Positions 1 to 58,451 of a stretch of 64,000 nucleotides of DNA are shown piece after piece. This DNA is from an uncultured virus (IMG/VR IMGVR_UViG_3300044679_000029). Taxonomy: Duplodnaviria; Heunggongvirae; Uroviricota; Caudoviricetes. Position 1 is the stretch's first letter; the number at the start of each line of letters is the position of its first letter. Where the stretch lies: positions 32,001 to 96,000 of the IMG/VR virus record IMGVR_UViG_3300044679_000029; one strand, given 5' to 3'. The notes under the pieces were generated by a model. That model did no database searches. It was not told the origin of the DNA and saw nothing but the letters and a program-made list of their open reading frames with translations. A program made the position numbers and the translations under genes.

Positions 1-161
1 TTTTCTAGGTGAATGCTAAACTTGGAACCAGCAATAGGAAAAGCTGCCTGGATACCCTCCAGGAGTTTTGTTCTTAATTGCTTGCGGTGTTCTTCGGCCG
101 GAAGAGATAGGGCTTCGAGAATCATGACTAATTATAGCCTTGGTCGGATAAGGGTGGAATG

Positions 162-171
162 TGGTATAAGA
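162..171 (+). promoter_or_regulatory. TGGTATAAGA promoter-like motif (extended -10)
   Basis: Same 10-mer at 351, 4248, 22135 and 57734, each upstream of + strand gene clusters. Confidence 0.6.
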
Positions 172-214
172 GATATGGTATACTGCAATATAACCATTCA
201 CCAAGGAGAATGCA

Positions 215-331
215 ATGTATTTTACTCTCGTAGCCTGTGTTGCTGTTGGCTGTCTTCCTGTAATCTGTGAGGGCATCAAGTGGTATTGGAAAACCGGTTT
301 TGCCTATATCTTCGACGGATTCGGCGATTAA
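215..331 (+). CDS. small hydrophobic hypothetical protein (MYFTLVACVAVG...)
   Basis: AAGGAG RBS upstream; follows promoter motif; 38 aa. Confidence 0.5.
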   Translation: MYFTLVACVAVGCLPVICEGIKWYWKTGFAYIFDGFGD

Positions 332-350
332 GCAATTAATCACCGTTTTA

Positions 351-360
351 TGGTATAAGA
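351..360 (+). promoter_or_regulatory. TGGTATAAGA promoter-like motif
   Basis: Repeated motif upstream of the small-gene operon. Confidence 0.6.
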
Positions 361-402
361 TATAGACATCTAAACCCCCATTTTCAGCCGGAGACCCCAA
401 AC

Positions 403-558
403 ATGGAAAAGCTCAAGAAGGCAGTCAACCGAACGGTTCGCGCGGCCCTGTTCACAATAGCGTTTTACACAATCTCATTCGGAGTAGCGTACGCTGTAAC
501 TGCGGCGTATGACAAACTATTCACCCCCAAATCCAAGGATAAGGAGAGCCGAAAATGA
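403..558 (+). CDS. small membrane protein (MEKLKKAVNR...)
   Basis: GGAG RBS, one hydrophobic segment, ATGA overlap with next gene. Confidence 0.6.
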   Translation: MEKLKKAVNRTVRAALFTIAFYTISFGVAYAVTAAYDKLFTPKSKDKESRK

Positions 559-695
559 TGAAGCTCGCAGATGCAATAGTCAAGACAGCCGTTGACACGT
601 TGTGTCTGATCGTCGCTGGCGCTTTCGTAATTGCACTCCTTGATTCTGAGGAAACAGAAGAAGATTCTTCTCCAGCCAAGCCGGAGGTTCATTAA
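555..695 (+). CDS. small membrane protein (MMKLADAIVK...)
   Basis: AAGGAG RBS, hydrophobic segment, acidic tail. Confidence 0.6.
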   Translation: MMKLADAIVKTAVDTLCLIVAGAFVIALLDSEETEEDSSPAKPEVH

Positions 696-696
696 C

Positions 697-1011
697 ATGC
701 AATACCAGGGTTGGAATGACTACTGGGTCATTCAGAGAAATCGCAAGTTCACGCAGTGGCTAAGCATTCTTCTTGCGGTCATTGCGCTGGTCATGTGCGC
801 GTTTGTAGCAAAGCGCGCACGCGCAGCAGAACCAGATGCCGCCGTAATGTTGCGACCTTGGCAATTCTGCCGTCGTCGCGTCGACAAGTATTCTCACAGG
901 CGAAAGTGGTGCTGGAACACCGACATCTGCTATAAATCACGCCAGATCTGCAACCGCTCTTTGACCGAGCAACTGCAATTTGAGCGTAGTACGGGTGCCA
1001 AAACCAGGTGA
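697..1011 (+). CDS. hypothetical membrane/secreted protein
   Basis: GGAGG RBS before ATG 697; TM segment; Cys-containing C-terminus. Confidence 0.6.
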   Translation: MQYQGWNDYWVIQRNRKFTQWLSILLAVIALVMCAFVAKRARAAEPDAAVMLRPWQFCRRRVDKYSHRRKWCWNTDICYKSRQICNRSLTEQLQFERSTGAKTR

Positions 1012-1298
1012 ACCCTCAACCAGGAGTACACTTGAAAAGATCAATACATAGCAGAGCAGAAGTGGATGAAATCATCGTTAGAACGTGTCGCATGGAATCA
1101 CAGGTAGAACTGTTGGTGATCCAAATTGAGGAAGCCAAAATAGAACTACCATTCTTGCCGCCGATGCTACAGGCGAGAACCCTCCAAAATATCATTCAAT
1201 GGCAGAGTGCTATTTCGGATGTAGAGCGAACCATTGCTCGGGCAAAAAAGGCGCTAGTAATGATAATAGCGTCGAACAAGGACGTAGCGCGCGCATGA
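1008..1298 (+). CDS. hypothetical protein
   Basis: GTGA overlap with upstream gene; tightly packed operon. Confidence 0.6.
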   Translation: MNPQPGVHLKRSIHSRAEVDEIIVRTCRMESQVELLVIQIEEAKIELPFLPPMLQARTLQNIIQWQSAISDVERTIARAKKALVMIIASNKDVARA

Positions 1299-1483
1299 GT
1301 AGAAGCAGTCGAAAGAAAGAAGATGCGAAGGTTCTTTGTTGGTACGTTCGGAGGCACCTCGGACGGAAGCACGATACCGACCTGTATATAAGAGCGGTAT
1401 TTGCCATCCACGAGTTCAGGGCTAAGTACCCTGAAGTTCGTGTTGAGGAGATAGCTAAGTATGGCGACAAAGCTGGCAGTTAA
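1295..1483 (+). CDS. hypothetical protein
   Basis: ATGA overlap; operon packing. Confidence 0.5.
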   Translation: MSRSSRKKEDAKVLCWYVRRHLGRKHDTDLYIRAVFAIHEFRAKYPEVRVEEIAKYGDKAGS

Positions 1484-1676
1484 CGTACACGACGACAGCT
1501 GTATTTCCTGCAAGAAGCCCGTCGATCCCTCGAAGCAACGACAGGCTTTCATCCACGATCACTGCGAGCCAATTCAATTTTGGCCAAAGTGGCGGCGAGA
1601 GCAGGTTTTCGTAGACCGCGAGAAGGTTCTCGCCAATCGGGCGAAGAAGCTCGCTTCAGCAGAGGCATCTCGGTAG
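1461..1676 (+). CDS. hypothetical Zn-binding protein
   Basis: CxxC...HxxC; GAGGAG RBS. Confidence 0.6.
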   Translation: MATKLAVNVHDDSCISCKKPVDPSKQRQAFIHDHCEPIQFWPKWRREQVFVDREKVLANRAKKLASAEASR

Positions 1677-1811
1677 ATGTGGGTGAGGACGCTGTGGGTC
1701 TTTGCGTCCCATCCTGTTTCAAAGAAGTTACTTCTCGTGCTCGGAACTGCGACGAAAAAGGCGCTCGGGTTCTGAACACACTGGTAGCAAACCCCAATCG
1801 GGAAGGCATTT

Positions 1812-2036
1812 ATGGGCAGAAAGCTTTTGAGGTTTCTCGACGAGTTGAACGCAAAATCAGCGGACCGTCTCCCCGAACACACGATAGCAAGATTCATCCG
1901 GGAAGCAGTTGGGACTGATTCACCCGTCGATAATGCAGAGCTTGATGCACAGCTGGATCAGCTGATTGGGCTTGCAAAGCAGGCCCGAAATCAGCTGAAA
2001 TCTAAGCACAAGGAAAACGCAGAATATGAGAATTAG
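1812..2036 (+). CDS. hypothetical protein
   Basis: RBS-like GGAAGG; overlaps S12 start. Confidence 0.55.
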
Positions 2037-2439
2037 TCAGTTGGTCCGTTTGGGCCGAAAGAAAGTCCACAAGAAGAGCAAGTCGCCTGCATTGATGGGC
2101 AGCCCACAACTCAGCGGGACTGTTCTCCAAAGCAAGGTCATGAAGCCAAAGAAGCCGAATAGCGCAAATCGTCACATCGCGCGCATCCGACTGAGTAATG
2201 GCCGTGAAGTCACCGCTTACTGCGGTGGAGAGAACTCCAACGTGCAAGAGCACGCTCACGTTCTCGTTCGCGGTGGCCGAGTCCCGGATTTGCCGGGTGT
2301 GAAGTATCACATCGTACGCGGCGCTTTGGATTATTCCGGCGCCAATTGCATGAGCAAGTGCACCGCTGAACCCGGCAACGCTGGTGACAAGAAGATGCGT
2401 AACCAGGGCCGGTCGAAGTACGGTGTGAAGGCTCATTAA
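2026..2439 (+). CDS. rpsL: ribosomal protein S12 (uS12) homolog, divergent
   Basis: [46 protein letters not shown] and RSKYGVK motifs of S12. Confidence 0.95.
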
Positions 2440-2444
2440 CAGAT

Positions 2445-2499
2445 TGACAAACAAGCGGACCGTAGGCTTAGAAGTAGCCATCGGTCCGCTTGTTTGTCA
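2445..2499 (+). terminator. 18-bp perfect stem-loop after rpsL (terminator or processing site)
   Basis: TGACAAACAAGCGGACCG (2445-2462) pairs with CGGTCCGCTTGTTTGTCA (2482-2499). Confidence 0.6.
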
Positions 2500-2849
2500 T
2501 GTTGTCTTGTGGACACACTAACCAAGGAATAGCAATATGTCAACCAAAGTAATCGAAGCCGAGATAGTACAACCGTCGTAAAGCCGGAGTTGATCGACAA
2601 CCGCGTGACGCGAGGCAAGCTCGGAGCGTTCAAGAACAGCCTCAAGGGTGGCGCCGCGCAGTTGGCACTTCCTCCCGCGAAGAAGAACAAGAAGACTAAG
2701 TAACACCTTGTGGGCACACCAGAAACAAACTAGACCACTTGGGGATGAGTCGGCTAATCCATAGCGTCTATCTCGCATCTGGTCATTTAAAGTGCTGGTC
2801 ACTGCCCCACGTTTTATGCCCCGTCGTAACACCAACCAAGGAGAACACA

Positions 2850-3062
2850 ATGTCGCTAGACACAGAGCCACTCGTATTCGATGTGCTTGGCCCGGATGGC
2901 GAGCCAGTTCAATTCGAAAGAGCACATAGCATTCCGCTGCGCGTCACTGAGAATGAATTGACGTGGCTGTTTGCTGTCGTGAAGAAGCACGATCCAAAAG
3001 GGCAAATGGAGAGCATCCATGAGCAGCTCTTGGCTCAACTCACAAGGTGGTCGAGCCTGTAA
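2850..3062 (+). CDS. hypothetical protein
   Basis: AAGGAG RBS before ATG 2850. Confidence 0.65.
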   Translation: MSLDTEPLVFDVLGPDGEPVQFERAHSIPLRVTENELTWLFAVVKKHDPKGQMESIHEQLLAQLTRWSSL

Positions 3063-3070
3063 TTAAGGTC

Positions 3071-3157
3071 GGGCCTGTGGCGAAACTGGTAGACGCACTG
3101 GACTCAAAATCCGGCGCCCTTCGATAAGGCATCTCGGTTCGAGTCCGAGCGGGCCCA
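3071..3157 (+). tRNA. tRNA-Leu(CAA)
   Basis: GGGCCTG/CGGGCCC acceptor stem, TGGTAGAC D arm, CTGGA-CT CAA AA-TCCGG anticodon arm, long variable arm, GGTTCGAGTCC T arm. Confidence 0.93.
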
Positions 3158-3169
3158 TAAGGAGATAAC

Positions 3170-3466
3170 ATGCAACAAGTTTTCATCGTAATTGGTTCTA
3201 CCGGCGAGTATGACGACCATACTGAATGGACGGTAGCGGCGTACGCGACGGAGATCGAAGCAACTTGGCATGCGCGCAAAGCTGAGATGTGGGCGGATGC
3301 TAATGCGGAACAGTTTAGGGAACATAGTTGCTCTTGTAGTCCACTAGTAAATCCGTACGACGAGGATATGCAAATGGATTACAGCGGCACTAGCTATTCT
3401 GTTCAGGGGCCGCTCGCTATTCTAACGCGGAAACAAACTGAGGACCGCGTTAAGGGAATAACATGA
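3170..3466 (+). CDS. hypothetical phage protein
   Basis: AAGGAG RBS; 98 aa. Confidence 0.7.
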   Translation: MQQVFIVIGSTGEYDDHTEWTVAAYATEIEATWHARKAEMWADANAEQFREHSCSCSPLVNPYDEDMQMDYSGTSYSVQGPLAILTRKQTEDRVKGIT

Positions 3467-3599
3467 AAATCATCTGCGACAGGAACACGAAATGACAACG
3501 GTAGAAATAACAAAAACGACATCGAAGTCGCTCTGAGCAGGGCCACCGAAGGAAACGTTACAATTTATGTCGACGATCTTGTTCGACTAGGAGACTAAA

Positions 3600-4232
3600 A
3601 TGAAATGGTTCTCAGAAGTAAAACCACTCGGGGACATTCGTCTCCCGGCTTTCATGGGTATCAGAATTCAGATGATGCCCGTGATTCTGGGCTACATGGA
3701 TAGCATTCCGTACGAGCTTCGGCACTTTCGAGAGACCATTCTCAGAATATTCTGCTTGATGGATCAGAAGCACATCGGACAGACTGGCTACTTGACCATC
3801 GATGAGAAGTTCGTCAGATTCGGTCAATTCCACCGGCGGTCGGGTTTGCACGTCGATGCTGGTGGGTGGGGTGGCAGTGGACCAAGGCATCCCGCCGCGA
3901 GCGCAGACAATGGCATGATCGTGACGCAGAGCCACGAGCACACTGTTGCCTACCACCAAGCATTCGAAGGTGAGATTGGTGAAGAGGGTGATTGCAAGTG
4001 TTTGCGTCGACAGGCAATAGCACCGAATCCTCTCAAGGCTTTCAAAGCCTACTGGCTCAGTGGGCTGACAGTCCACGGACACATCTCGCCAATGCTTCAA
4101 GACACAGCACGGCAATTCGTGCGACTGAGTTTGCCGTCTGACGCGCCGTGGTTTGACGGCTACACCGAAAACCCTTTGGGCGTCAAACCTACAGGTCCGG
4201 TGCTACCAAGACGCAAGTTCATGGATTTGTGA
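3600..4232 (+). CDS. putative 2OG-Fe(II) oxygenase-like phage protein
   Basis: HRRSGLHVD (HxD), later H (TVHG) and RQFVRL. Confidence 0.55.
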   Translation: MKWFSEVKPLGDIRLPAFMGIRIQMMPVILGYMDSIPYELRHFRETILRIFCLMDQKHIGQTGYLTIDEKFVRFGQFHRRSGLHVDAGGWGGSGPRHPAASADNGMIVTQSHEHTVAYHQAFEGEIGEEGDCKCLRRQAIAPNPLKAFKAYWLSGLTVHGHISPMLQDTARQFVRLSLPSDAPWFDGYTENPLGVKPTGPVLPRRKFMDL

Positions 4233-4241
4233 TTTCGGGTC

Positions 4242-4257
4242 AAAATCTGGTATAAGA
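4242..4257 (+). promoter_or_regulatory. AAAATCTGGTATAAGA promoter motif
   Basis: Identical 16-mer at 22129 and 57728. Confidence 0.7.
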
Positions 4258-4259
4258 TA

Positions 4260-4910
4260 TTGATCCGCGAATCATCGCTTCGCGATGCATGAGGCGGTAG
4301 ATCAATCCTGGTCTGGATAGTTCCAGGACCTTGGGTCTATCGCCTCACGTTAACTCTGGGCCTGTAAGCGTGTGTGCCAGCACAGTATGAGAACATCCGG
4401 TCGTTACAGCCGGTTAGGGACCAGTGACCCCCGGACATTGGTCCGGGGATAGGCCTGATGTAACCTCCGTCGCTGGCTTGGCGACGAACCTGAAATGCGT
4501 GCTCATTTGTGGGCCGCTGATTGTAAGGGACAAGTCAAACCACTTGGCTGCGGGTCGCCACCGCGGTGTTTCGAGAATTATAAGTGGGCCAGGGTTTCTC
4601 GTTACCTGGCACTTTTCAAACTGCCCGGCCGAAACGAGACCGGTTTAAAGTGTTCGCGAACTTCAGATCAGTTGGGACTGAACTAGTTCCCAGGTCAAGT
4701 CGCGATCTAAAAATCTCCTACAAAAAGCCCGATCCTGCAAGACCGGGTAATAAAAAGGAGTAGCCTTGCAGGGCGTTTAACGGGATGACGTAAATCGGGC
4801 GCGCGAGGCTGATACCTTGCGATGCTGACAGAATACGAAAACTCTCGTCAGGTTTGTGCTCTGGACCCATGGGTGGACGCCGGGGCACAAACCTGCTGTG
4901 TTCTTCGCAG
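4260..4910 (+). ncRNA. candidate large structured RNA / leader
   Basis: No credible ORF; successive hairpins e.g. 4290-4347, 4429-4448, 4468-4486, 4851-4893; starts right after the promoter motif. Confidence 0.55.
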
Positions 4911-4941
4911 CACAAACCCGTAGCAAGAAAGAGGCAATCAC

Positions 4942-5127
4942 ATGAGAACCGTTGAGTACTACTCCAAACTGAACGCGATCTGTGCTGAGTACTGCCCCAA
5001 GCTGGACGCGTGCGACGCTGAGTCCTGCTCCAAACTGAACGCGCTCAAAGCCGAGTTCAAGTCCAAGCTGGACGCGCTCGACGCTGAGTCCCACCTCAAC
5101 CAGCCCGCCGTCAGCACAAACCCGTAG
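4942..5127 (+). CDS. 11-mer repeat mini-protein 1
   Basis: GAAAGAGG RBS; SKLxAxxAEYx repeats. Confidence 0.75.
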   Translation: MRTVEYYSKLNAICAEYCPKLDACDAESCSKLNALKAEFKSKLDALDAESHLNQPAVSTNP

Positions 5128-5145
5128 CAAGAAAGAGGCAATCAC

Positions 5146-5382
5146 ATGAGAACCGTTGACAAATTCAATTCCAATGAGTACTGCTCCAAGCTGGACGCGA
5201 TCAATGCTGAGCGCGACTCCAAGCTGGACGCGATCAATGCTGAGTACTTCTCCAAGCTGGACGCGATCAATGCTGAGCGCGACTCCAAGCTGGACGCGAT
5301 CAGTGCTGAGCGCGACTCCAAGCTGGACGCGCTCGACGCTGAGTACCACCTCAACGAGCCCGCCGTCAGCACAAACCCGTAG
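5146..5382 (+). CDS. 11-mer repeat mini-protein 2
   Basis: Same RBS and repeats. Confidence 0.75.
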   Translation: MRTVDKFNSNEYCSKLDAINAERDSKLDAINAEYFSKLDAINAERDSKLDAISAERDSKLDALDAEYHLNEPAVSTNP

Positions 5383-5400
5383 CAAGAAAGAGGCAATCAC

Positions 5401-5817
5401 ATGAAAACCTTTGTTGACGAAATCAAGTCCAAGATGAACGCGTTCAGTGCTGAGTACTTCTCCAAGCTGGACGCGCGCGACGCTGAGTACAAGTCCAGGC
5501 TGGACGCGATCAGTGCTGAGTACAAGTCCAAGGCTGAGTTCAAGTCCAAGCGGAACGCGATCAATGCTGCGTACGACTCCAAGCGGAACGCGATCAACGC
5601 TGGGTACTTCTCCAAGCTGAACGCGTTCAGAGCCGAGTGCAGGTCCAAGCTGAACGCGCTCAGTGCTGAGTACGACTCCAAGCTGAACGCGATCAACGCT
5701 GGGTACTTCTCCAAGCTGAACGCGTTCAGAGCCGAGTGCAGGTCCAAGCTGAACGCGCTCAGTGCTGAGTACTTCCCCAAGCTGGAAGCGCTCATTGCTG
5801 AGTACCACCTCAACTAG
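5401..5817 (+). CDS. 11-mer repeat mini-protein 3
   Basis: Same RBS and repeats; longest copy. Confidence 0.75.
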   Translation: MKTFVDEIKSKMNAFSAEYFSKLDARDAEYKSRLDAISAEYKSKAEFKSKRNAINAAYDSKRNAINAGYFSKLNAFRAECRSKLNALSAEYDSKLNAINAGYFSKLNAFRAECRSKLNALSAEYFPKLEALIAEYHLN

Positions 5818-5859
5818 CCCGCCGTCAGCACAAACCCGTAGCAAGAAAGAGGCAATCAC

Positions 5860-6024
5860 ATGAGAACCGTTGACAAATTCAATTCCAAGCTGTACGCGCT
5901 CGGTGCTGAGTACGACTCCAAGCTGTACGCGATCAACGCTGAGTACAGATCCAAGCTGAACGCGATCAATGCTGAGTACTTATCCAAGCTGAAAGCGCTC
6001 GACGCTGAGTCCCACCTCAACTAG
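5860..6024 (+). CDS. 11-mer repeat mini-protein 4 (54 aa, not in ORF track)
   Basis: MRTVDKFNSKLYALGAEYDSKLYAINAEY...HLN*; same RBS. Confidence 0.75.
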   Translation: MRTVDKFNSKLYALGAEYDSKLYAINAEYRSKLNAINAEYLSKLKALDAESHLN

Positions 6025-6066
6025 CCCGCCGTCAGCACAAACCCGTAGCAAGAAAGAGGCAATCAC

Positions 6067-6348
6067 ATGAGAACCGTTGACAAATTCAATTCCAAACTGA
6101 ACGCGATCAGTGCTGAGTCCAGGATAAACGCGATCAGTGCTGAGTACGACTCCGAGCTGAACGCGATCAATGCTGAGTACTGCTCCAAGATGAACGCGCT
6201 CAGTGCTGAGTACTGCTCCGAGCTGGACGCGTGCGACGCTGGTCACTGCTCCAAACTGAACGCGCTCAAAGCCGAGCTCAAGTCCGAGCTGGACGCGCTC
6301 GACGCTGAGTCCCACCTCAACCAGCCCGCCGTCAGCACAAACCCGTAG
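6067..6348 (+). CDS. 11-mer repeat mini-protein 5
   Basis: Same RBS and repeats. Confidence 0.75.
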   Translation: MRTVDKFNSKLNAISAESRINAISAEYDSELNAINAEYCSKMNALSAEYCSELDACDAGHCSKLNALKAELKSELDALDAESHLNQPAVSTNP

Positions 6349-6362
6349 CTCAAACCGGAGGT

Positions 6363-6572
6363 GTGCAAGTGATAATCAAGCCGAATCAGTTGACTCCCAT
6401 CCCAGAGGGCATCAAGATCAAGAAGATTTCGGCAGGCGAAACCAGCGGAGTCTTCTTTGTGATCAGCCACATCACAAGGTTCATGTCGCGGGAAAACAAG
6501 AATTCGCGGCGTAAGCCAGACCAGTATCAGCCCAGAAATCTCTCGGGCTTCGATCCGGTCGAGAGCGAATAA
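6363..6572 (+). CDS. hypothetical protein
   Basis: GGAGG upstream (start may be GTG 6369); follows the array. Confidence 0.5.
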   Translation: MQVIIKPNQLTPIPEGIKIKKISAGETSGVFFVISHITRFMSRENKNSRRKPDQYQPRNLSGFDPVESE

Positions 6573-6724
6573 TCTTCTAGACTTTCTCCCGGGCTAAGGT
6601 CATGCCTGGTAATGGCCCTAATTAGTCAATGCGGGCTAGAAAGCGGGAATCCCATGAAGTGGACCTAGCGATCCGACAATCTAATGCATAGATTAGCACT
6701 AGAATAACTCTGAGAAAACTGTGA

Positions 6725-6837
6725 GCCCACAAGAAGATATCTTCTTGTATATACGTTTATAACCCCCCAATCTGACAGAAATTGTCGGAACGGCAATGGG
6801 AATAAACGTGTATACGTGAGGATATCTTCTTGTGGGC
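6725..6837. repeat. long imperfect inverted repeat with internal 20-bp palindrome
   Basis: GCCCACAAGAAGATATCTT...TATACGTTTAT versus ATAAACGTGTATAC...GATATCTTCTTGTGGGC. Confidence 0.85.
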
Positions 6838-6861
6838 AATTAAGATTTGTCGGTTTTTAGG

Positions 6862-6890
6862 TTGACTTCCTATAACATCTGAATTATACT
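6862..6890 (+). promoter_or_regulatory. sigma70-type promoter
   Basis: TTGACT-17-TATACT upstream of portal. Confidence 0.7.
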
Positions 6891-6936
6891 AGACATGATT
6901 AGCGGAACTATAATTTAGTACTAGGAAGACAAACTA

Positions 6937-8688
6937 ATGCCTTTATATACCGACGCAGTTCAAGGGAGCTTATTTCCCTCTAGTAACAGTCAACCCAATC
7001 CTTTATTTACTTATCTCCAGGGGTTTATTCCCAGAAAACTCAAGGACCTATTTAGGTGGTTGGAATATCTATCCTATAACTCAACGCATATCTATGCCGG
7101 ACTATATAAGCTCGCGGATTATTCGGTTACAGACGTTCAATACTTAACCGATTCCACCCAGGAAAAAACTCGGCATAAAGATTTACTTGAGAAGACGTTA
7201 CACATTAAATCGTTACTTAAAGCAGCGTCACGCGACCGCCTTATATACGGAAATAGTTTCATATCTCTATACATGCCGTTTATCCGCAATATGGTGTGCA
7301 CTGGTTGTAAGATTAAGCGCAATATAGATACTGTCGACTATAAGTTTAAGTGGAAGAATCTTACGTTTAACTGGCTTTGCAAGGAATGCGGCCAATCAAA
7401 CATGACTGGCGTCGACGATTTTGAGGATATCAAAGTCCCCAACCATAAGCGTATTAACGTTATCCGGTGGGACCCCAAGCTGATAGACATCGATTATAAT
7501 CCCCTAACCGGTGAAAGCACAATCTACTACACGATTCCAAAAGAAGTTAAGGAGAAGATTCGTGCTGGTAATAAGCATCTTCTAAATTCGATGCCTGTTG
7601 GATTTTTAAAGGCCGTCAAAGAAGATCGTCTATTTAAGTTCGACAGAGGTCAAGTCTTCCATATGAAGATCGATGCACCAGCCGGTATCGATTCTCAGTG
7701 GGGCTTCTCACCGTTACTAGCAACTATTCCTAGCTTCCTGTATGTGGCCGTATTACGTAAGGCCAACGAAGCCATCGCATTAGATTTCGCTGTACCTCTT
7801 CGTATTCTTCACCCGGCACAATCGTCTTCTAACGCTGATCCGGTGTCGACTATTAACTTAGGTAACTGGACTGAGAAGACACGCGAAAATATTCGTAAGT
7901 GGCGTCGAGACCCCTTGCACATCATGTTTGCGCCTGTGCCATTAGGAATAACTCAGATGGGTGGGACTGCAAAATTGCTCTTAACTGCAACTGAGATTCG
8001 TGACGTAGAGGATAACATTATTACTGCTCTAGGTATTCCTCGTGAATTTATTTACGGCGGGATGACTATGACCGGGTCTAGCGTAACACTACGCATGTTA
8101 GAGAACCAACTTCTAACTCAGACCAAAGATCTAGAAGACTTAATGGGTTGGATTGACGACAAGTGTGCGACATTCTTAGGGTGGGGTAAGATACATACTG
8201 AGCTACTGCCGTTTAAACTTGTGGACGATGTTGCGCAAAAAAATGTTCTAGTTCAAATTAATCAAGTTAAACCGATTATTTCTGATACTACAATCGCAGA
8301 AGTCTTCGGCTACGATCTTAAGAAAGAGCGAAAGCTTAGAATGCAAGAAGCATTGGACGAGGCGCGCTTCCAGATGGAAATGCAGAAGAGCGTTTCTGAT
8401 ATACAAAATAACCTTGGCCAGCAAGCACGGACACAAGCGGGATCCGCACCGCCATATAATCCTCAGCAGATTGTACAACAGGCTGATCAACTCGTACAAC
8501 AGTTATCGGGACTCGATCACGGTTCCCGCAAATCTGAACTAGATAAACTAAAAAAAGAAGACTTCGTTCTATACGCGGTAACAGCGAAACGTCTTGAGGA
8601 CTATAACAATACTCAAACTCAGGCAGCCAAAAGTCAACAAACAGGTGGCGGACAACCGGCACCGCAACCGTCGGGCGGAGCAAAGTAG
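6937..8688 (+). CDS. portal protein
   Basis: Portal-like layout (D.LIYGNSF, QVFHMK, WGFSPL, IITALGIPREF), Q-rich tail, 583 aa. Confidence 0.75.
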   Translation: MPLYTDAVQGSLFPSSNSQPNPLFTYLQGFIPRKLKDLFRWLEYLSYNSTHIYAGLYKLADYSVTDVQYLTDSTQEKTRHKDLLEKTLHIKSLLKAASRDRLIYGNSFISLYMPFIRNMVCTGCKIKRNIDTVDYKFKWKNLTFNWLCKECGQSNMTGVDDFEDIKVPNHKRINVIRWDPKLIDIDYNPLTGESTIYYTIPKEVKEKIRAGNKHLLNSMPVGFLKAVKEDRLFKFDRGQVFHMKIDAPAGIDSQWGFSPLLATIPSFLYVAVLRKANEAIALDFAVPLRILHPAQSSSNADPVSTINLGNWTEKTRENIRKWRRDPLHIMFAPVPLGITQMGGTAKLLLTATEIRDVEDNIITALGIPREFIYGGMTMTGSSVTLRMLENQLLTQTKDLEDLMGWIDDKCATFLGWGKIHTELLPFKLVDDVAQKNVLVQINQVKPIISDTTIAEVFGYDLKKERKLRMQEALDEARFQMEMQKSVSDIQNNLGQQARTQAGSAPPYNPQQIVQQADQLVQQLSGLDHGSRKSELDKLKKEDFVLYAVTAKRLEDYNNTQTQAAKSQQTGGGQPAPQPSGGAK

Positions 8689-8728
8689 CATTTGAAAGTA
8701 TTACGTACCACCAACAAGAGAGTAAATC

Positions 8729-9076
8729 ATGCCTCGAAGACCAAAAACAGATCCTAATACAGACTTCGCTAATTTAGTTAACGAGATTAGTAATGCTAAT
8801 ACTGAAATAGATTTGGCACCAGCGCACCCTACACAGAATCAATCGGCGTCATCTGACTTGCTAGACGACCATTTTACATACACGTGTAAGGTCGAGCGAT
8901 TTGAAATTGGTACCGATAATAGTAAATACGAACAATTAATGACGGATGGCGTAAACGGTAAGATTAATATTATTCGTGAGCGGTTTGTTGATACTAAGGA
9001 AGGCAAAACGTTTTGTGTCCTCGTGTATCTTGTTCCGAAGCCGAAGCTCCTGAAGCCTGCTCCTCCGCCGCTATAA
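8729..9076 (+). CDS. hypothetical protein
   Basis: Co-oriented ORF between portal and helicase. Confidence 0.7.
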   Translation: MPRRPKTDPNTDFANLVNEISNANTEIDLAPAHPTQNQSASSDLLDDHFTYTCKVERFEIGTDNSKYEQLMTDGVNGKINIIRERFVDTKEGKTFCVLVYLVPKPKLLKPAPPPL

Positions 9077-23380: not shown

Positions 23381-24625
23381 ATGTCAAAGACTACAGCAGA
23401 GAGCCCAGATACTAATAAGCAGGCGGATGTTGAGCAGTTCAAGTTGATGAAGATGCAGTGGGGCGATCCGGCGTTCGTGAAGGCACACATTAAGGCGTGC
23501 ATGGATACGAATGAGGTCGCCGGAGTCATTGGTAAGGCCGGTATCGGTAAGACCGATATCGTTCAGCAGCTCGTGAAGGAATTGTCCGAGAGTACGGGCA
23601 AGACGTGGGGATGTCGTGTTATCCAACTCCAGCATTTGGAGAAGGAGGACATCGCGGGATTTCCGTTCCCAGATCCTGATAACAGTCACAGCGTGGTGAT
23701 GCGTCTTCTGAAGCGGTTGCCTCGCGAAGGTGATTGTGAGGAGTGTGGCATTATCTTCTTCGATGAGTTCAATCGAGCAGATAAGTCAGTCACGAATGCT
23801 GTCTTCCCCGTCATGGAGGAGCGTCGTATCGGTGACTGGTACGTTCCAAAGGGTTGGCACGTTGTTCTCGCTGGTAACGTCTCTGATGACGCCTACGCGG
23901 TGAATGAGGCGGAGAAGGATCCCGCTATTCGTCGCCGTGTGTGCTGGGTCGGTGCTGTGTGCAATAGCCGTCAGTGGTTGGAGTATGCGCGGTCTGTCGG
24001 TATGCACCAGTCTGTGATCGAGTTCATCGCTGCAAATCCCCCGGCTCTGTACGATGACACCGCGCATCGCAATGGTGCGATTGGTGCTTCTCCTGCGTCT
24101 TGGGAGAAGGTTTCCAAGTCGATGCACGCTGCCGGAAAGAATGGAAAGGCTGTCCTCAGCAAGATCGCCGGAAACATTGGTCTTCCGCGGGCGCTCGATT
24201 TCGTTAAGTTCGCCGAAGAGATCAGCAATAAGCCACCTCCACCGCTTGAAATTCTCTTGAATTTCACTACGGATGAGAATCTACAGCGTCGAGTCAAGAT
24301 GCTGGAGCCGGGTGAGACTGCAAACCTCAGTTCGTCCGTCTTGCACGCTCTCAACGAGTTGAGTGCAGACGCCGATCAGAAGGTCGTTGAGACCAATCTG
24401 GCCGAGTATCTGAATACTCTCACGAGCGACGGGTTCGCCAACTTCATCGAGTTGGTGGTTCAGTCGGTGGCAACTAACATGTCACCGATTGCGGCGAGCG
24501 TGTTGGAGAGCATGTCGCAGGACAAGAAGTATAAGGCTCGCGCCAAGAAGGTCCAGAAGTCGATTGCCTCGTTGAACGGCAAGTCGGTGGTATTGACTGA
24601 TGGCGATAAGACGGTGACAGTCTAG
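23381..24625 (+). CDS. MoxR-like AAA+ ATPase
   Basis: GKAGIGKT, IFFDEFNRA, LAGN, DPAIRRR, SPASWE. Confidence 0.88.
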   Translation: MSKTTAESPDTNKQADVEQFKLMKMQWGDPAFVKAHIKACMDTNEVAGVIGKAGIGKTDIVQQLVKELSESTGKTWGCRVIQLQHLEKEDIAGFPFPDPDNSHSVVMRLLKRLPREGDCEECGIIFFDEFNRADKSVTNAVFPVMEERRIGDWYVPKGWHVVLAGNVSDDAYAVNEAEKDPAIRRRVCWVGAVCNSRQWLEYARSVGMHQSVIEFIAANPPALYDDTAHRNGAIGASPASWEKVSKSMHAAGKNGKAVLSKIAGNIGLPRALDFVKFAEEISNKPPPPLEILLNFTTDENLQRRVKMLEPGETANLSSSVLHALNELSADADQKVVETNLAEYLNTLTSDGFANFIELVVQSVATNMSPIAASVLESMSQDKKYKARAKKVQKSIASLNGKSVVLTDGDKTVTV

Positions 24626-25476
24626 ATTAGACTGTTACAAGCAGTTGTGTAGGACGTAAGACAGTCCAGCAAGTGGTTCTCCACAGAGGCTAATTTGCCT
24701 AGTTGGATGTCTAACGGGGTCTCAGAGAAGGTGGTAGTAGTGAGGTCGTTCTTGTTCGTCTCCGACCAAGCTGCTACCACCTCTTCTGTTGACAGCCCTG
24801 TTCCATTGCGATTCAAATATTTAAGTTCTTCGGCAGCAAAAGTTAATACATCTGGACATACAAGCATACCATATTCATGTAGACATCCAGCCGTGTATAC
24901 GCGCGGTTCTCTGTCTAACGTGGTACCAAAAGCGCCGGTATTTTCTAAGACAAAATCGGCCTCGATACACGCCCAGGCTAAATATGCTGGAGTTACCGGG
25001 CGTAAGATTTCTGTGTCAGGAATTTCTCCGGCAAATGCGGCAACCGTTGTAGCGAAGACATTAGCGTCCATTAAGAATACTGGCATATCAATGAGAAGCA
25101 TCGCGGATAGGAGTTTATTCCTATTTTCATGGGATAAGTCTATATCATGCTCATCAGCTAGTGTATGCCAGATAGTATCTGGGTCAAAAGTAGTTATTAA
25201 TGGGCCTAAAACATTCGTGGCTGCAAGCAAGACTAAACTGGCATTAGTGTCGGGGTTAGCCAATAAAACCTTACTACGGGTCTGCCAGGCCCCCGTACCA
25301 GTCTTATAGTTAATAGTCCTATCCTCATAATGACCCGCGATCTCAGATTGATTACGTTTGCAGGCCGATGCTGCAGCATCAAATGCTGCCTTGGCTTTTA
25401 TAATTGCTTTATTTAGGGCTGGGCTATTCTTAGTGCGCCCAATAGGATCTAAGGCATACGGTTCTTCGATTGTCAT
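24622..25476 (-). CDS. hypothetical protein (probable head-associated)
   Basis: 284-aa ORF coupled to 25481-26467. Confidence 0.65.
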   Translation of the reverse strand: MTIEEPYALDPIGRTKNSPALNKAIIKAKAAFDAAASACKRNQSEIAGHYEDRTINYKTGTGAWQTRSKVLLANPDTNASLVLLAATNVLGPLITTFDPDTIWHTLADEHDIDLSHENRNKLLSAMLLIDMPVFLMDANVFATTVAAFAGEIPDTEILRPVTPAYLAWACIEADFVLENTGAFGTTLDREPRVYTAGCLHEYGMLVCPDVLTFAAEELKYLNRNGTGLSTEEVVAAWSETNKNDLTTTTFSETPLDIQLGKLASVENHLLDCLTSYTTACNSLI

Positions 25477-30977: not shown

Positions 30978-32099
30978 TTAACTTCCAGAGAGATTATAGC
31001 CAGTGACGCCTAGAAGACTGCCGCCGCCCACGAGCAAAGATTGTGATTCCTGATTGAGTAGCGAACTAACTAGAGACTGGACAGATATAGAGTGTGCTAA
31101 AGCCGAATTAGCGGAACTGTAGTAGCTACAGAAATTCGAGTCTAAGAATATAGTACTGTTGCCATAGTCGCTGCGGGTGATAACAGCGTCAGTAATCGTA
31201 TTAACGCCACCATTCCAGGTTAACTTTGAACCAGTAGCATCCGGGCTTGACCAAACACTAATATCGGTTGGAAATGGGGAAGACGAAGTTATGAACGGAA
31301 TTGAGCTAGATAGGGTTGTTGAGGCTGAAGCGGTGCCTTGAGCAGATAAGTTCATTCCTGATACTGAAGTTGGGGGTGGAATATTTAGAATACAAGATGG
31401 AAAAAAGCTCGCCCCAACACGGCCGCCAACAGGCCCAAATTGCGGTATGATTTGGGTAGCCGGGCTATAGGATAATACATTGAATGTATCCTGATACGAA
31501 ATTATACCGGTCGTCCGTGGCGCTAGTGTTCCCTGATACGCGTAGGGCAGATCTGATGGAGTCCCGATCGAATACGTTACTGTTTGTCCGGTTTCAGTTG
31601 GACCGAGAGGAAAGTAGTTTGGGGGTGCTAGATTAATAGCATTGGCAAGCGATAGCGAATTTGTCGCGATAGGAATTAGTAGTGGACTACCAGAATTGTA
31701 TGTTCCGTAGCCACCAGTAATTTTAATAAACGCGTTAGTGGGTATAACGAGACTATTTAATGCACCAGCCTGATCAGTAAATTTTGTGGCGTTTAATATT
31801 GAATTCCATGTCGCTGGGTATGTATTAAACTTTATGGATGCTGGTGTTAAACTTGCGGCATACAAATATTGCCACGCTGAAGACGCCATTGCGTTTAGAG
31901 GATTAGGATTTAGAACATTTAAGTCGTTAGGAGAAGCTATTCGGAGTAGAACTTCTATTGGTCCGTCTACACTTCCAGTCCTTAGAATAACGAAGCTATT
32001 GGCTAAAATAGACGGCGAAGCTATAGGAAGCCAGTCGACAGCAAGTGTCGCTGAATTACTAGTATTCTCTCTGTCCTGAATTAAGGTGGCCGTTGCCAT
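30978..32099 (-). CDS. virion structural protein
   Basis: Ser/Thr/Pro-rich; AAGGA RBS. Confidence 0.6.
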   Translation of the reverse strand: MATATLIQDRENTSNSATLAVDWLPIASPSILANSFVILRTGSVDGPIEVLLRIASPNDLNVLNPNPLNAMASSAWQYLYAASLTPASIKFNTYPATWNSILNATKFTDQAGALNSLVIPTNAFIKITGGYGTYNSGSPLLIPIATNSLSLANAINLAPPNYFPLGPTETGQTVTYSIGTPSDLPYAYQGTLAPRTTGIISYQDTFNVLSYSPATQIIPQFGPVGGRVGASFFPSCILNIPPPTSVSGMNLSAQGTASASTTLSSSIPFITSSSPFPTDISVWSSPDATGSKLTWNGGVNTITDAVITRSDYGNSTIFLDSNFCSYYSSANSALAHSISVQSLVSSLLNQESQSLLVGGGSLLGVTGYNLSGS

Positions 32100-58187: not shown

Positions 58188-58388
58188 ATGACAGAACAAG
58201 AACGACTCGCGGCTATGCACTGTCCAGGACATAAGGACATGGCAATGGTCTGTGAGATTTGCGCAGCCAACGAAATGAAAATAGTAGCCGGAGAAGAGCG
58301 GGCTAAAATCATAGCCGAATTAAAGGTCGGTGGATTTGAGGACGCGGTTAAGAGTTTAGAAGCAGCGATAACTGTTTCTGGCCGCTAG
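58188..58388 (+). CDS. hypothetical protein
   Basis: CxxH...CxxC; end overlaps tRNA. Confidence 0.5.
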   Translation: MTEQERLAAMHCPGHKDMAMVCEICAANEMKIVAGEERAKIIAELKVGGFEDAVKSLEAAITVSGR

Positions 58389-58451
58389 CTCAATTGGTAG
58401 AGCAGACAATCTATAATTGTCTGGTTCCTGGTTCGATCCCAGGGCGGCCAA
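58379..58451 (+). tRNA. tRNA-Ile(UAU), atypical C33
   Basis: TGGCCGC/GCGGCCA acceptor, GCTC-AATTGGTA-GAGC D arm, GACAA-TCTATAA-TTGTC anticodon arm, CCTGG-TTCGATC-CCAGG T arm. Confidence 0.8.

Follow-up and report, generated by a model that had tools for sequence, protein, structure and literature searches.

Introduction

Helical repeats with a period of 11 residues build the hendecad (undecad, 11/3) coiled coils of tetrabrachion, of trimeric autotransporter stalks such as that of NadA3, and of the H tube of phiX174. Tandem 11/3 helices are also formed by the class-A 11-mer lipid-binding repeats of apolipoproteins A and E, α-synuclein, the perilipins, and the group 3 LEA proteins. At the level of gene organization, integrons offer a precedent for small ORFs, each complete in itself, that are lined up with an element of ~60 nt recurring between them.

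The locus described here brings together an 11-residue helical repeat and a cassette-like arrangement of small ORFs. It belongs to a large tailed phage from peat metagenomes (IMG/VR record IMGVR_UViG_3300044679_000029, 117 kb (117,101 bp), estimated to be 65% complete), and the window, that is, the whole stretch of DNA analyzed, comprises 64,000 nucleotides (positions 32,001 to 96,000 of that record). A preliminary description had proposed an array of five mini-gene cassettes in this window. We consider it rather probable that the locus is a real + strand array of five paralogous, separately translated mini-genes (54-138 aa), encoding helical proteins, joined by linkers, and undergoing recombination.

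Organization of the array and its linkers

ORF calling on the window returned five + strand ATG ORFs of 61, 78, 138, 54, and 93 aa joined by a constant linker, which bears out the five-cassette array, and the described spacings between cassette starts (204, 255, 459, and 207 bp) were reproduced. Cassette 1 (4942-5127, + strand) encodes 61 aa with 4 units, a net charge of -2, and the tail HLNQPAVSTNP; cassette 2 (5146-5382, + strand) encodes 78 aa with 5 units and a net charge of -7; cassette 3 (5401-5817, + strand) encodes 138 aa with 11 units plus a 6-residue insert and a net charge of +7; cassette 4 (5860-6024, + strand) encodes 54 aa with 4 units and a net charge of +1; and cassette 5 (6067-6348, + strand) encodes 93 aa with 6 full units, one 9-residue unit, and a net charge of -7. 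The number of units had been thought to differ in each cassette; the counts are 4, 5, 11, 4, and 6 and are not all different, because cassettes 1 and 4 both hold 4. All five proteins share one layout, with a short MRTVDKFN-like head (7-13 aa before the repeats), 4-11 units, an optional tail HLN(QPAVSTNP), and little else.

The linker between the cassettes is constant, as described, but the strictly identical block measures 58 nt instead of ~70 bp, with near-identity extending roughly 10-25 nt beyond it on each side in most copies. On the + strand, this block is found at 5092-5149 (linker 1), 5347-5404 (linker 2), 5806-5863 (linker 3), and 6013-6070 (linker 4). A partial first copy (4908-4945, + strand) contains the TAG, GAGG, and ATG without the CACCTCAAC... 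half, and a terminal half linker (6313-6349, + strand) diverges past its TAG into the GGAGG-7 nt-GTG of the next ORF. The 5' half (CACCTCAACNAGCCCGCCGTCAGCACAAACCCGTAGC) and the 3' half (GCACAAACCCGTAGCAAGAAAGAGGCAATCACATGA) of the constant block each occur in five copies in the window with 0 mismatches, and neither half was matched in any of 100 window shuffles that preserved dinucleotides.

Each 58-nt linker combines the TAG stop of the previous cassette with GAGG-7 nt-ATG, and GAGG sits 7 nt 5' of every cassette ATG, so that the linker does carry stop, ribosome-binding site, and start, with a well-spaced set for each cassette. Among the long ORFs, 29 of 71 are preceded by Shine-Dalgarno (SD)-like 4-mers, versus 10% of random positions. 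No inverted repeat was found in the 58-nt linker, and its RNA fold had no extra stability relative to shuffles (z +0.42, + strand; z +1.21, - strand). A single variable base switches one linker codon between CAG (C, linker 1), GAG (G, linker 2), and TAG (T, linkers 3 and 4). In cassettes 3 and 4, this T creates a TAG 8 codons before the common TAG, which costs two of the five cassettes the 8-residue tail: cassette 3 stops at the early TAG 5815-5817, with a second in-frame TAG at 5839-5841, and cassette 4 stops at the early TAG 6022-6024, with a second TAG at 6046-6048. All five cassettes lie in one common reading frame, TAG being the sole separator, a feature that the preliminary description did not mention.

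Repetition at two nested levels, as noted earlier, was evident in the 33-bp units, whose periodicity was detected in every cassette by Tandem Repeats Finder, and in the cassettes with their constant linker. The view that the array is prone to recombination agrees with the mosaic similarity among cassettes, which points to recombination: the tail of cassette 1 matches that of cassette 5 at 124 of 132 nt (94% DNA identity), and cassette 3 contains an internal 99-bp duplication (96/99 match).

Conservation of the 11-residue unit

The full 33-bp units of the array number 30 and specify S-K-L-[N/D]-A-[I/L]-x-A-E-Y-x; they differ among themselves by 15-40%. A5 and A8 are invariant (30/30), followed by S1 (28/30), E9 (26/30), and K2 (25/30), and the variable positions are 4, 6, 7, 10, and 11. 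Within the A-[E/D]-[Y/F/W] triad, A8 was present in 30 units, E9 in 26, and Y10 in 18. When the unit is read as a hendecad, the a/d/h stripe is formed by L3 (25/30), I/L/F6 (27/30), and Y/F/L10 (20/30), and a second stripe consists of the small residues S1/A5/A8. Indels are all multiples of 3 (a 27-nt short unit and an 18-nt insert), and 0 frameshifts occur in the 30 units over 1.4 kb. Judged from the sequence, the pattern in which A5, A8, S1, E9, and K2 are kept and the other positions vary is one of position-specific constraint, not decay.

Among the units, pN/pS in the + frame was 1.86, the highest of the six frames; the antisense frame gave 0.74, and the four other non-sense frames gave 0.71-0.94. 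The value of 1.86 fits diversification but also relaxed constraint. Together with the invariant A5 and A8 it suggests diversification, a pattern typical of genes in phage-host conflict.

Genomic context and read support

The family-supported upstream neighbors, a 210-aa phrog_8970 gene (3600-4232), a uS12-like gene, and a tRNA-Leu, are all on the + strand, as are the plausible small ORFs upstream of the array. Downstream, the family-supported SNF2 helicase and a 583-aa ORF just beyond the array are also on the + strand; the latter had a sub-threshold Pfam match only, and its relatives were not found in viral_contigs. An extended -10-like motif (TGGTATAAGA core; 4248-4263, + strand) lies just 3' of the stop of the 210-aa gene. 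The motif occurs 11 times in the 117-kb record, always on the + strand and never on the - strand, and we regard the copy at 4248-4263 as a candidate promoter of the array-bearing unit. In a sigma-70 scan, no + strand promoter was called within 3000-6860.

Just 5' of the first linker copy lies a strong hairpin (4849-4895, + strand), an inverted repeat with 16-nt arms that are 88% complementary; the linker word GCACAAACC recurs in its 3' arm. Folding of 4840-4960 to minimum free energy gave it as a 15-bp stem, with a z-score for the whole stretch of only -1.63. A doubtful 33-aa leader ORF (4822-4923, + strand) is in the cassette frame and ends in ...STNP-TAG as the cassettes do; its translation is uncertain because the sole GAGG is 13 nt before its ATG. 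Downstream of the array, a 69-aa ORF (6363-6572, + strand), for which no family was found in Pfam or PHROGs, is probably part of the same transcription unit, the end of which may be marked by a large inverted repeat with 36-nt arms (6725-6837). The sigma-70 scan placed a sigma-70-like promoter after this repeat, at 6862-6890. Contigs of an RNA library (X3, see below) provided pieces up to 6699 and none over 6752-6900, a weak hint from one study. Rfam gave no match within the array. For the region 3000-9000, no DNA relative was found in 50,697 phage records save for a 71-nt stretch in the tRNA region, and the exact linker was not found in viral_contigs or metagenome_contigs, in scans that possibly mask the window's own record.

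Logan contigs of three DNA runs (X1, X2, and X4) and of X3 contained cassette-specific pieces at 99-100% identity. For each of the five cassettes, specific pieces with 0 differences came from two or more of the four runs. Contigs from independent runs carry both early TAGs with 0 differences: the variable T of linker 3 was found with 0 differences in X2 and X4, and that of linker 4 was matched by contigs of X1, X2, and X3. The X3 contigs may derive from DNA, and contigs carry no strand information. Every short-read Logan contig of the four runs stops in a linker, and none bridges the array, so that the order and number of cassettes rest on the original assembly alone. Cover was absent at 5240-5575 in X2, at 5408-5575 and 6080-6247 in X3, and at ~5156-5323 (next to nothing to 5407) and 5912-6247 (next to nothing to 6331) in X4; these gaps are not evidence for cassette loss. 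X4 also showed a 10-letter loose end before 4908.

Structural predictions

The AF2 model of the cassette 3 protein consisted of helices at residues 2-40 and 44-137 (mean pLDDT 92.2). Structure prediction of homo-oligomers, which had been suggested as a check, yielded for cassette 2 a homodimer model that passed its controls: the two chains are antiparallel, with an ipSAE of 0.55 versus 0.02 for the best control, at least 71% of contacts are shared between runs, and partner pLDDT is at least 81. Among proteins of solved structure, 21 of 30 pairs of one chain reached the ipSAE mark, as against 0 of 23 single chains. Residues K2, L3, I6, N7, E9, and Y/R10 make up the modeled interface. The expectation of 11-mer helices or hendecad coiled coils was supported by a confidently predicted α-helix, and the L3/I6/Y10 a/d/h stripe coincides with the modeled interface.

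Searched against the PDB, the cassette proteins had no sequence match at E<=1; a Foldseek search of it yielded nothing at E<=0.001 and returned generic helical hairpins only. A type I antifreeze-like face has the motif [S/T]-x2-[N/D]-A-x2-A; such a face was considered and set aside, and the one pointer to it was a non-significant Foldseek match (E 3.2) to a designed helix that binds ice.

Relatives of the cassette proteins

When the + frame was compared by HMMER with 1.84 billion representatives, 79 hits were obtained at E<=1e-3, 9 of them at E<=1e-10. As query we used the 516-aa translation of 4822-6369 with TAG read as Q, a concatenated repeat that inflates the E-values. An 11-residue periodicity was found in 65 of the 79 hits. 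In this search, small members such as P0003, P0009, P0011, P0012, and P0026 scored at inflated E-values of 7e-16 to 1e-4. Many small hits (e.g., P0011, P0026, P0033, P0041, and P0073) have the register [K/R]-x-D-A-[I/L]-x-A-E-Y in common, and these, with L266 and L275, share K-[R/L]-D-A-[I/L]-x-A-E-Y, a register identical to that of the cassettes. A word-indexed search with the 138-aa protein found no relative at near or longer lengths, and the ESM Atlas returned viral 'hypothetical' clusters only (scores <0.9).

The breadth of the class was measured by the degenerate DNA pattern AEY-x8-AEY-x8-AEY, with hits in at least 120 contigs from genomes and at least 119 from viruses. A two-repeat version was discarded, since it matched mostly phage scaffold-like proteins with a chance AEY pair. 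Among the matches listed, 210 of 239 fetched loci had an ORF with at least 3 periodic motifs. The relatives share with the cassettes an 11-residue helical repeat centered on A-E-Y, in a highly variable number of 3-19 repeats. They differ in their N-terminal domain of 40-140 aa, of 'GAC…W' or 'MCxF.SW' type, which the cassettes lack: among the matches listed, the N-terminal part exceeds 40 aa in 104 of 116 viral ORFs and is at most 15 aa in 8 of 116. HMMs of both domain types gave 0 hits in the six-frame translation of the 117-kb record. In 106 of 132 viral ORFs among the matches listed, the register is also a different one, AEY-x-[R/K]-[V/I]-x-A-P-A-W. Tandem paralogues occur in other viral contigs (e.g., L208, L212, and L200); identical stop/SD/start linkers were not seen at the fetched loci, where gene spacing alone was compared.

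Matches to phrog_8974, phrog_14818, or phrog_7241 were obtained for some viral members, and DUF7666 occurs in one relative. The AEY-type repeat proteins are covered by no Pfam family, and full-text searching of the literature found no paper on this class. A profile of 59 viral AEY-repeat proteins matched residues 558-657 of 7uvk_A (E 2.3e-11), an IgA1 protease with a streptococcal surface protein repeat region (Pfam RICH). This match belongs to the viral subfamily and not to the proteins of the window, which touch RICH at E 0.02, and is probably a likeness of charged helical repeats. On sequence grounds, we classify the cassettes as domain-less members of a widespread, uncharacterized class of phage and bacterial proteins.

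The preliminary description had further proposed decoy, anti-defense, or membrane-binding effectors. This proposal gained no direct support: PADLOC matched 0 families at E<=0.01 for three cassette proteins, and Pfam and PHROGs returned sub-threshold coiled-coil noise only. A diversity-generating retroelement (DGR) was dropped, as the variation is not adenine-specific, and a RiPP precursor array was considered and dropped as well.

Discussion

As separately translated mini-genes, the cassettes would each be translated from their own GAGG-7 nt-ATG and, since the linker also holds the TAG of the previous cassette, the arrangement would be typical of translational coupling or re-initiation. Each product would be a long amphipathic α-helix; in the models, L3/I6/Y10 pairs the helices into antiparallel two-helix coiled coils, which would leave the S1/A5/A8 stripe free for further packing, and acidic-to-basic cassettes may co-assemble. 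Unequal recombination between 33-bp units and between linkers would make the array grow, shrink, and shuffle. Either gene conversion or selection acting on the signals for translation may keep the linkers identical as the helix surfaces diversify. Some observations fit this interpretation less well, namely the single frame with TAG-only separation, the pN/pS of the + frame relative to the antisense frame, the early TAGs that remove the tail in two cassettes, the missing N-terminal domain that most listed viral relatives have, the failure of the word-indexed search to find relatives of the 138-aa protein, and a functional guess without a match in PADLOC, Pfam, or PHROGs. Under separate translation, we estimate that a common frame would arise by chance in roughly 1 of 15 cases. 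Regarding the role, we can offer a guess, an accessory host-interaction function under an arms race, which is conceivable although the balance of probability is against it.

Two alternatives absent from the preliminary description, read-through of the TAGs and coding on the - strand, also called for consideration. The shared frame is what one long gene would predict, in which a suppressor tRNA or leaky termination lets the TAGs be read through to give a protein of ~516 aa (4822-6372, with a TGA end) and the 'linkers' serve as flexible spacers between repeats (…HLNQPAVSTNPQQERGNHMRTVDKFN…). Every distance between cassette starts is a multiple of 3, the only stops in 4822-6372 are eight TAGs, the C/T change at the linker base would be silent if TAG encoded Q, and all eight TAGs are followed by C, a weak termination context. 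A suppressor tRNA could sit in the missing part of the incomplete record; the available 117,101 bp contain tRNA-Leu(CAA) and tRNA-Ile(TAT) only and no suppressor tRNA(CUA). However, TAG terminates 20 of 86 long ORFs, including the 583-aa neighbor and an 895-aa DNA polymerase (with 22 and 6 open codons past the TAG, respectively), table 11 leaves ORFs of 895-1409 aa uninterrupted, and for the three best TAG-joined candidates elsewhere no family match supports continuation through the TAG; in one of the three, a new gene visibly begins past it. Moreover, the well-spaced GAGG-7 nt-ATG of every linker would be a coincidence, and the relatives contain one block of 3-19 repeats rather than several blocks, so we regard read-through of a single gene as very unlikely. 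A phage with TAG recoded to Q was rejected on the avoidance of TAG as a terminator, which was not seen, on the intact table 11 ORFs, and on the unsupported joined pairs. Still more improbable, to the point of being nearly dismissed, is a true gene on the - strand encoding an antisense repeat protein (…VERVQLGVALSTDRVQLG…), with the + strand mini-ORFs as its by-product. The codon-for-codon antisense frame is open from ~6375 to 4777 except for one TAA (5980-5982), which breaks it into two ORFs (360 and 111 aa). A hairpin followed by a T-run, at 4747-4728 on the - strand and 30 nt past the ORF end, resembles a terminator, and the antisense pN/pS of 0.74 is below that of the + frame. Yet 0.74 is not distinct from the values of the other four non-sense frames, five terminator-like sites were found versus 4.4 expected in shuffles, and the frame is probably open simply through the few codon types that the repeat uses, its openness then counting as one or two independent trials. 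The antisense translation had no Pfam match above noise, whereas the + frame has relatives, two of which in the same register (L266 and L275) have 0 stops in the sense frame and 3 and 6 in the antisense frame; the family-supported neighbors and the recurrent promoter-like motif are all on the + strand.

The repeats could also be a minisatellite-like stretch, unstable and largely neutral, or a mosaic of one shaped by assembly; the cassettes would then exist as DNA, but the number, order, and perhaps integrity of the mini-ORFs would have no selected function. Such an origin would agree with the Logan contigs of all four runs ending in a linker, with no record across the array, with a pN/pS above 1 in the + frame, with premature TAGs in two of five cassettes, with the failure to find relatives of this register in IMG/VR, and with the absence of a function-bearing domain in Pfam, PHROGs, and PADLOC searches. 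We nevertheless consider it unlikely, given 1.4 kb of repeats without a frameshift and with indels in multiples of 3 only, the specific constraint on unit positions such as A5 and A8, linkers identical across 58 nt while the units diverge, and the recurrence of exactly matching pieces of all five cassettes in two or more runs each. A similarly low probability is assigned to the helices being 11/3 amphipathic binders of membranes or lipid surfaces, in the style of apolipoprotein, α-synuclein, and perilipin, instead of soluble coiled coils. The 11-residue periodicity and one hydrophobic stripe suit such binders, membrane-like segments were seen by eye in a few distant 11-periodic hits (P0008 and P0044), and a faint Pfam Apolipoprotein match was obtained for cassette 3 and, with higher scores, in relatives. 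The cassette 3 score, however, was 24.6 bits against a gathering cut-off of 90 (PF01442), the stripe is narrow (3 of 11 positions) with charged residues on either side, three of the five proteins are acidic (-2, -7, and -7), and the self-pairing model passed its controls.

The proposed array of mini-genes may have a more specific purpose, which we put forward as a long shot: a recombination-driven diversification locus in which the linker is a portable joint that lets unequal crossing-over shuffle, add, and drop hendecad modules, a kit of acidic-to-basic helices that changes within the phage population co-assembles via L/I/Y and S/A/A faces into hetero-oligomers and binds a variable host factor, and the linker base and common frame allow tail-less, tailed, and occasional fused read-through forms. 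If true, this would be a new phage route to combinatorial small-protein diversity and a first functional handle on a large unannotated class of phage proteins. The array in any case draws attention to the large AEY-type class that has no Pfam model. It presents this class at its simplest, as repeats alone in five separately initiated mini-proteins, and is therefore a convenient structural and functional entry point. Identical linkers, one frame, and TAG-only separators also make it a natural test case for translational coupling versus read-through in an uncultured phage.

Compared with described hendecad coiled coils, the cassette proteins are likewise 11-periodic, with an a/d/h core, long unbroken helices, and predicted self-association; they differ in their modeled assembly of two antiparallel chains instead of a parallel trimer, tetramer, or decamer, and in showing no sequence or fold match in the PDB searches. 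With the class-A lipid-binding repeats they share the tandem 11/3 helices, without the proline-punctuated 22-mers of the apolipoprotein type. The likeness to integron-type cassette arrays is one of architecture only: instead of an attC-like palindrome, the linker carries translation signals, and the cassettes are paralogues of one another.

Organization of the cassette array

ORF calling identified five mini-ORFs on the + strand (cassettes 1 to 5; 61, 78, 138, 54, and 93 aa; window 4942-6348), exactly bearing out the preliminary description, which had given start spacings of 204, 255, 459, and 207 bp. The constant block between cassettes is 58 nt long, CACCTCAAC-N-AGCCCGCCGTCAGCACAAACCCGTAG-CAAGAAAGAGGCAATCAC-ATGA; each of two overlapping linker halves was present in five copies with no mismatches, compared to zero matches in 100 shuffles. 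The first, partial linker copy (4908-4945, +) lies 5' of cassette 1, and the last, half copy (6313-6349, +) continues into the GGAGG-GTG of a 69-aa ORF. The cassettes contain 30 full 11-residue units (S-K-L-[N/D]-A-[I/L]-x-A-E-Y-x), split 4, 5, 11, 4, and 6 over cassettes 1-5, and irregular pieces in the form of a 6-residue insert in cassette 3 and a 9-residue unit in cassette 5.

Every length difference within the array is a multiple of three. One reading frame, overlooked in the preliminary description, is common to the five cassettes and a 33-codon leader ORF of doubtful status (4822-4923), and the eight stops in it from 4822 up to the TGA at 6370-6372 are all TAG. Also overlooked was the variable linker base N, which gives CAG, GAG, TAG, TAG, and CAG in turn; because it makes a TAG in cassettes 3 and 4, these two stop eight codons sooner. 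The tails of cassettes 1 and 5 are identical at 124 of 132 nt, and a 99-bp internal duplicate matches at 96 of 99 positions, suggesting that the array was expanded and shuffled by unequal recombination. The linkers may have been kept alike by homogenization.

Sequencing runs from four studies of peat metagenomes, which contain sequence near-identical to the record, yielded cassette-specific pieces at 99-100% identity in three DNA runs and one RNA library. Both early TAG codons were among the pieces seen in independent runs. All contigs ended in linkers, and none in the four runs spanned the whole array, so that cassette order and number are those of the original assembly only.

Genomic context of the array

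The window makes up bases 32001-96000 of the IMG/VR record, which is 117,101 bp long and is listed as linear, with a completeness of about 65%. It encodes a large terminase, a family-A-like DNA polymerase, a ribonucleotide reductase, an HNH endonuclease, an SNF2 helicase, a PD-(D/E)XK nuclease, and a lysozyme, and from this gene content its source is judged to be a large tailed phage. The array belongs to a module (window 1-6600) with a GC content of 50-55%, compared to about 40-47% elsewhere (~44%), composed of small + strand ORFs mostly without assigned families. Among them are a uS12-like ribosomal protein gene 2.5 kb upstream of the array (137 aa; window 2026-2439, +; Pfam PF00164, E 7.9e-29, 100 bits), which is overlapped by a probably spurious 159-aa antisense ORF (2002-2481), and a + strand gene for a 210-aa phrog_8970 protein (PHROGs). 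A tRNA-Leu(CAA) gene also lies inside the module (3071-3157, +).

The 210-aa gene and the array are separated by about 590 nt (4233-4821) with no convincing ORF, and this stretch may serve as a long 5' leader or encode a small RNA. RNA-library contigs covered it from 4400, the start of the compared stretch, with depth figures of 10-30. One hairpin was located within this interval (4728-4747) and another, with a 15-bp stem, just 5' of the array (4849-4895). The + strand of the 117-kb record contains 11 copies of the word TGGTATAAGA, often with AAAAT[G/C] in front, and the - strand contains none (window 162, 351, 4248, 22135, and 57734, and six more in the record); the copy at 4248 follows the upstream gene. 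The word resembles an extended -10 phage promoter.

On the 3' side, an inverted repeat with 36-nt arms of 89% complementarity (6725-6760 and 6802-6837), each arm containing the palindrome GAAGATATCTTC, separates the array unit from a sigma-70-like promoter (6862-6890). An Rfam search of this repeat returned nothing but a sub-threshold miRNA-like match. In the RNA library, pieces from 4400 to 6699 were covered and none from 6752 to 6900; coverage stopped just before the inverted repeat, and the uncovered stretch begins within the repeat and takes in the promoter. This gives a weak hint of a transcription unit end near 6725-6837, the contigs being strandless and the library possibly including DNA carry-over.

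Coding strand and reading frame

A further feature absent from the preliminary description is an antisense frame, in codon-for-codon register, that runs without a stop from about 6375 to 4777 except for one TAA, with a terminator-like hairpin on the - strand just past its end. The antisense frame had a pN/pS of 0.74, other wrong frames spanning 0.71-0.94, and terminator-like sites were not in excess over shuffles; for these reasons we read the antisense ORF as a probable by-product of the small codon set of the repeat. The family-supported neighbor genes of the array are all on the + strand, as is the 583-aa ORF directly downstream, which gave only a sub-threshold Pfam match.

When the + frame was translated with TAG as Q (516 aa) and searched against 1.84 billion representative proteins, 79 matches at E<=1e-3 were obtained, of which 65 showed 11-residue periodicity. 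The unit register of the window is common to many small matches, such as P0011 (AEYQPKRDAIDAEY) and the similar P0026, P0033, P0041, P0073, and P0057. Two metagenome loci in the same register, L266 and L275, retain an intact sense frame, including an N-terminal domain free of the repeat; the antisense frames of these loci are interrupted by three and six stops, respectively. By sequence comparison, the + frame is homologous to a class of 11-periodic proteins.

Separate mini-genes or a single read-through gene

The common frame could also be taken as a single gene read through its TAG codons. Under the mini-gene reading, a shared frame with TAG-only separators would, by our own estimate, arise by coincidence in perhaps 1 of 15 cases. 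Every linker, in turn, has GAGG followed after 7 nt by ATG, and a well-placed SD and ATG inside a mere protein spacer would be a rarer coincidence than that; SD-like words were found 5' of 29 of 71 long ORFs, compared to 10% of random sites. Folding of the linker RNA gave structure no stronger than that of shuffles (z +0.42).

Elsewhere, the genome uses the standard genetic code. TAG terminates 20 of 86 long ORFs, including the neighboring 583-aa gene and the 895-aa polymerase, in both of which the open stretch behind the TAG is short; table 11 leaves ORFs as long as 1409 aa unbroken, and the only tRNAs found in the 117 kb are tRNA-Leu(CAA) and tRNA-Ile(TAT) (58379-58451), the second tRNA of the window. 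We infer that the five mini-proteins are translated separately, with coupling; some read-through may occur in addition to separate initiation.

Candidates for TAG-joined genes elsewhere in the record were without support. In the stretch 23381-25476, a 414-aa AAA_5-type ATPase ORF (+) ends at a TAG followed by 234 open in-frame codons, which overlap a 284-aa - strand ORF; no family was found for either of the two overlapping readings.

Predicted structure and variation of the cassette proteins

AF2 modeling of the 138-aa protein predicted helices at residues 2-40 and 44-137 (mean pLDDT 92.2), with the break coinciding with the 6-residue insert. On an 11/3 wheel, L3, I6, and Y10 form a narrow stripe, and S1, A5, and A8 the opposite one. 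Conservation within units is position-specific: A5 and A8 are invariant in all 30 units and S1 is kept in 28, nearly all variation falling at positions 4, 6, 7, 10, and 11. This variation is mostly non-synonymous (+ frame pN/pS 1.86), and net charge ranges from -7 to +7 across cassettes.

Modeling of the 78-aa protein in two copies gave an antiparallel dimer, with a score of 0.55 compared to 0.02 for the best control; among proteins of solved structure, 21 of 30 one-chain pairs and none of 23 single chains reached the mark used for this score. Contact agreement between runs was at least 71% and partner pLDDT at least 81, and the modeled interface comprised K2, L3, I6, N7, E9, and Y/R10. The model supports self-pairing of the 78-aa protein, and the cassette proteins are predicted to be helical and to pair in antiparallel fashion. 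An accessory role in host interaction would be our guess.

Relationship to the wider AEY-type class

A DNA-pattern scan for AEY-x8-AEY-x8-AEY matched at least 120 contigs from genomes and at least 119 from viruses; among the matches listed, 210 of 239 fetched loci contained an ORF carrying three or more periodic motifs. When ORFs cut by a locus end were excluded, the stretch before the repeats exceeded 40 residues in 104 of 116 viral ORFs among the matches listed and was at most 15 residues in 8. Two N-terminal domain types recur among relatives, one marked by 'GAC…W' and the other starting with 'MCxF.SW', and HMMs of both found no match in the 117-kb record. In viral contigs L147-L265, a small N-terminal domain of either type is followed by 3-19 11-mers of the form AEY-x-[R/K]-[V/I]-x-A-P-A-W. 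In other viral contigs, paralogues are commonly arranged in tandem, with three adjacent genes in L208 (342-2154), five in L212 (8370-11533), and four in L200 (2719-5637).

The register differed from that of the window in 106 of 132 viral ORFs among the matches listed, and the window's register appeared in 0 of 220 ORFs listed from the AEY-pattern scans. A register-specific pattern retrieved 18 metagenome stretches, four of them with periodic ORFs, and nothing in viral contigs. For 59 viral members, Pfam gave no consistent family, and PHROGs assigned 14 to phrog_8974 and 10 to phrog_14818, both of no known function, and 8 to phrog_7241, labeled a transcriptional regulator. The portions of the full-text literature retrieved included no paper that describes repeats of this kind from phages.

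Within this uncharacterized but common class of phage proteins, the array represents a new variant, one that is domain-less and unusually regular. Outside phages, the repeat region of the IgA1 protease entry 7uvk_A matches the profile of the 59 viral members (E 2.3e-11), a resemblance that probably reflects similarity at the level of the repeat.
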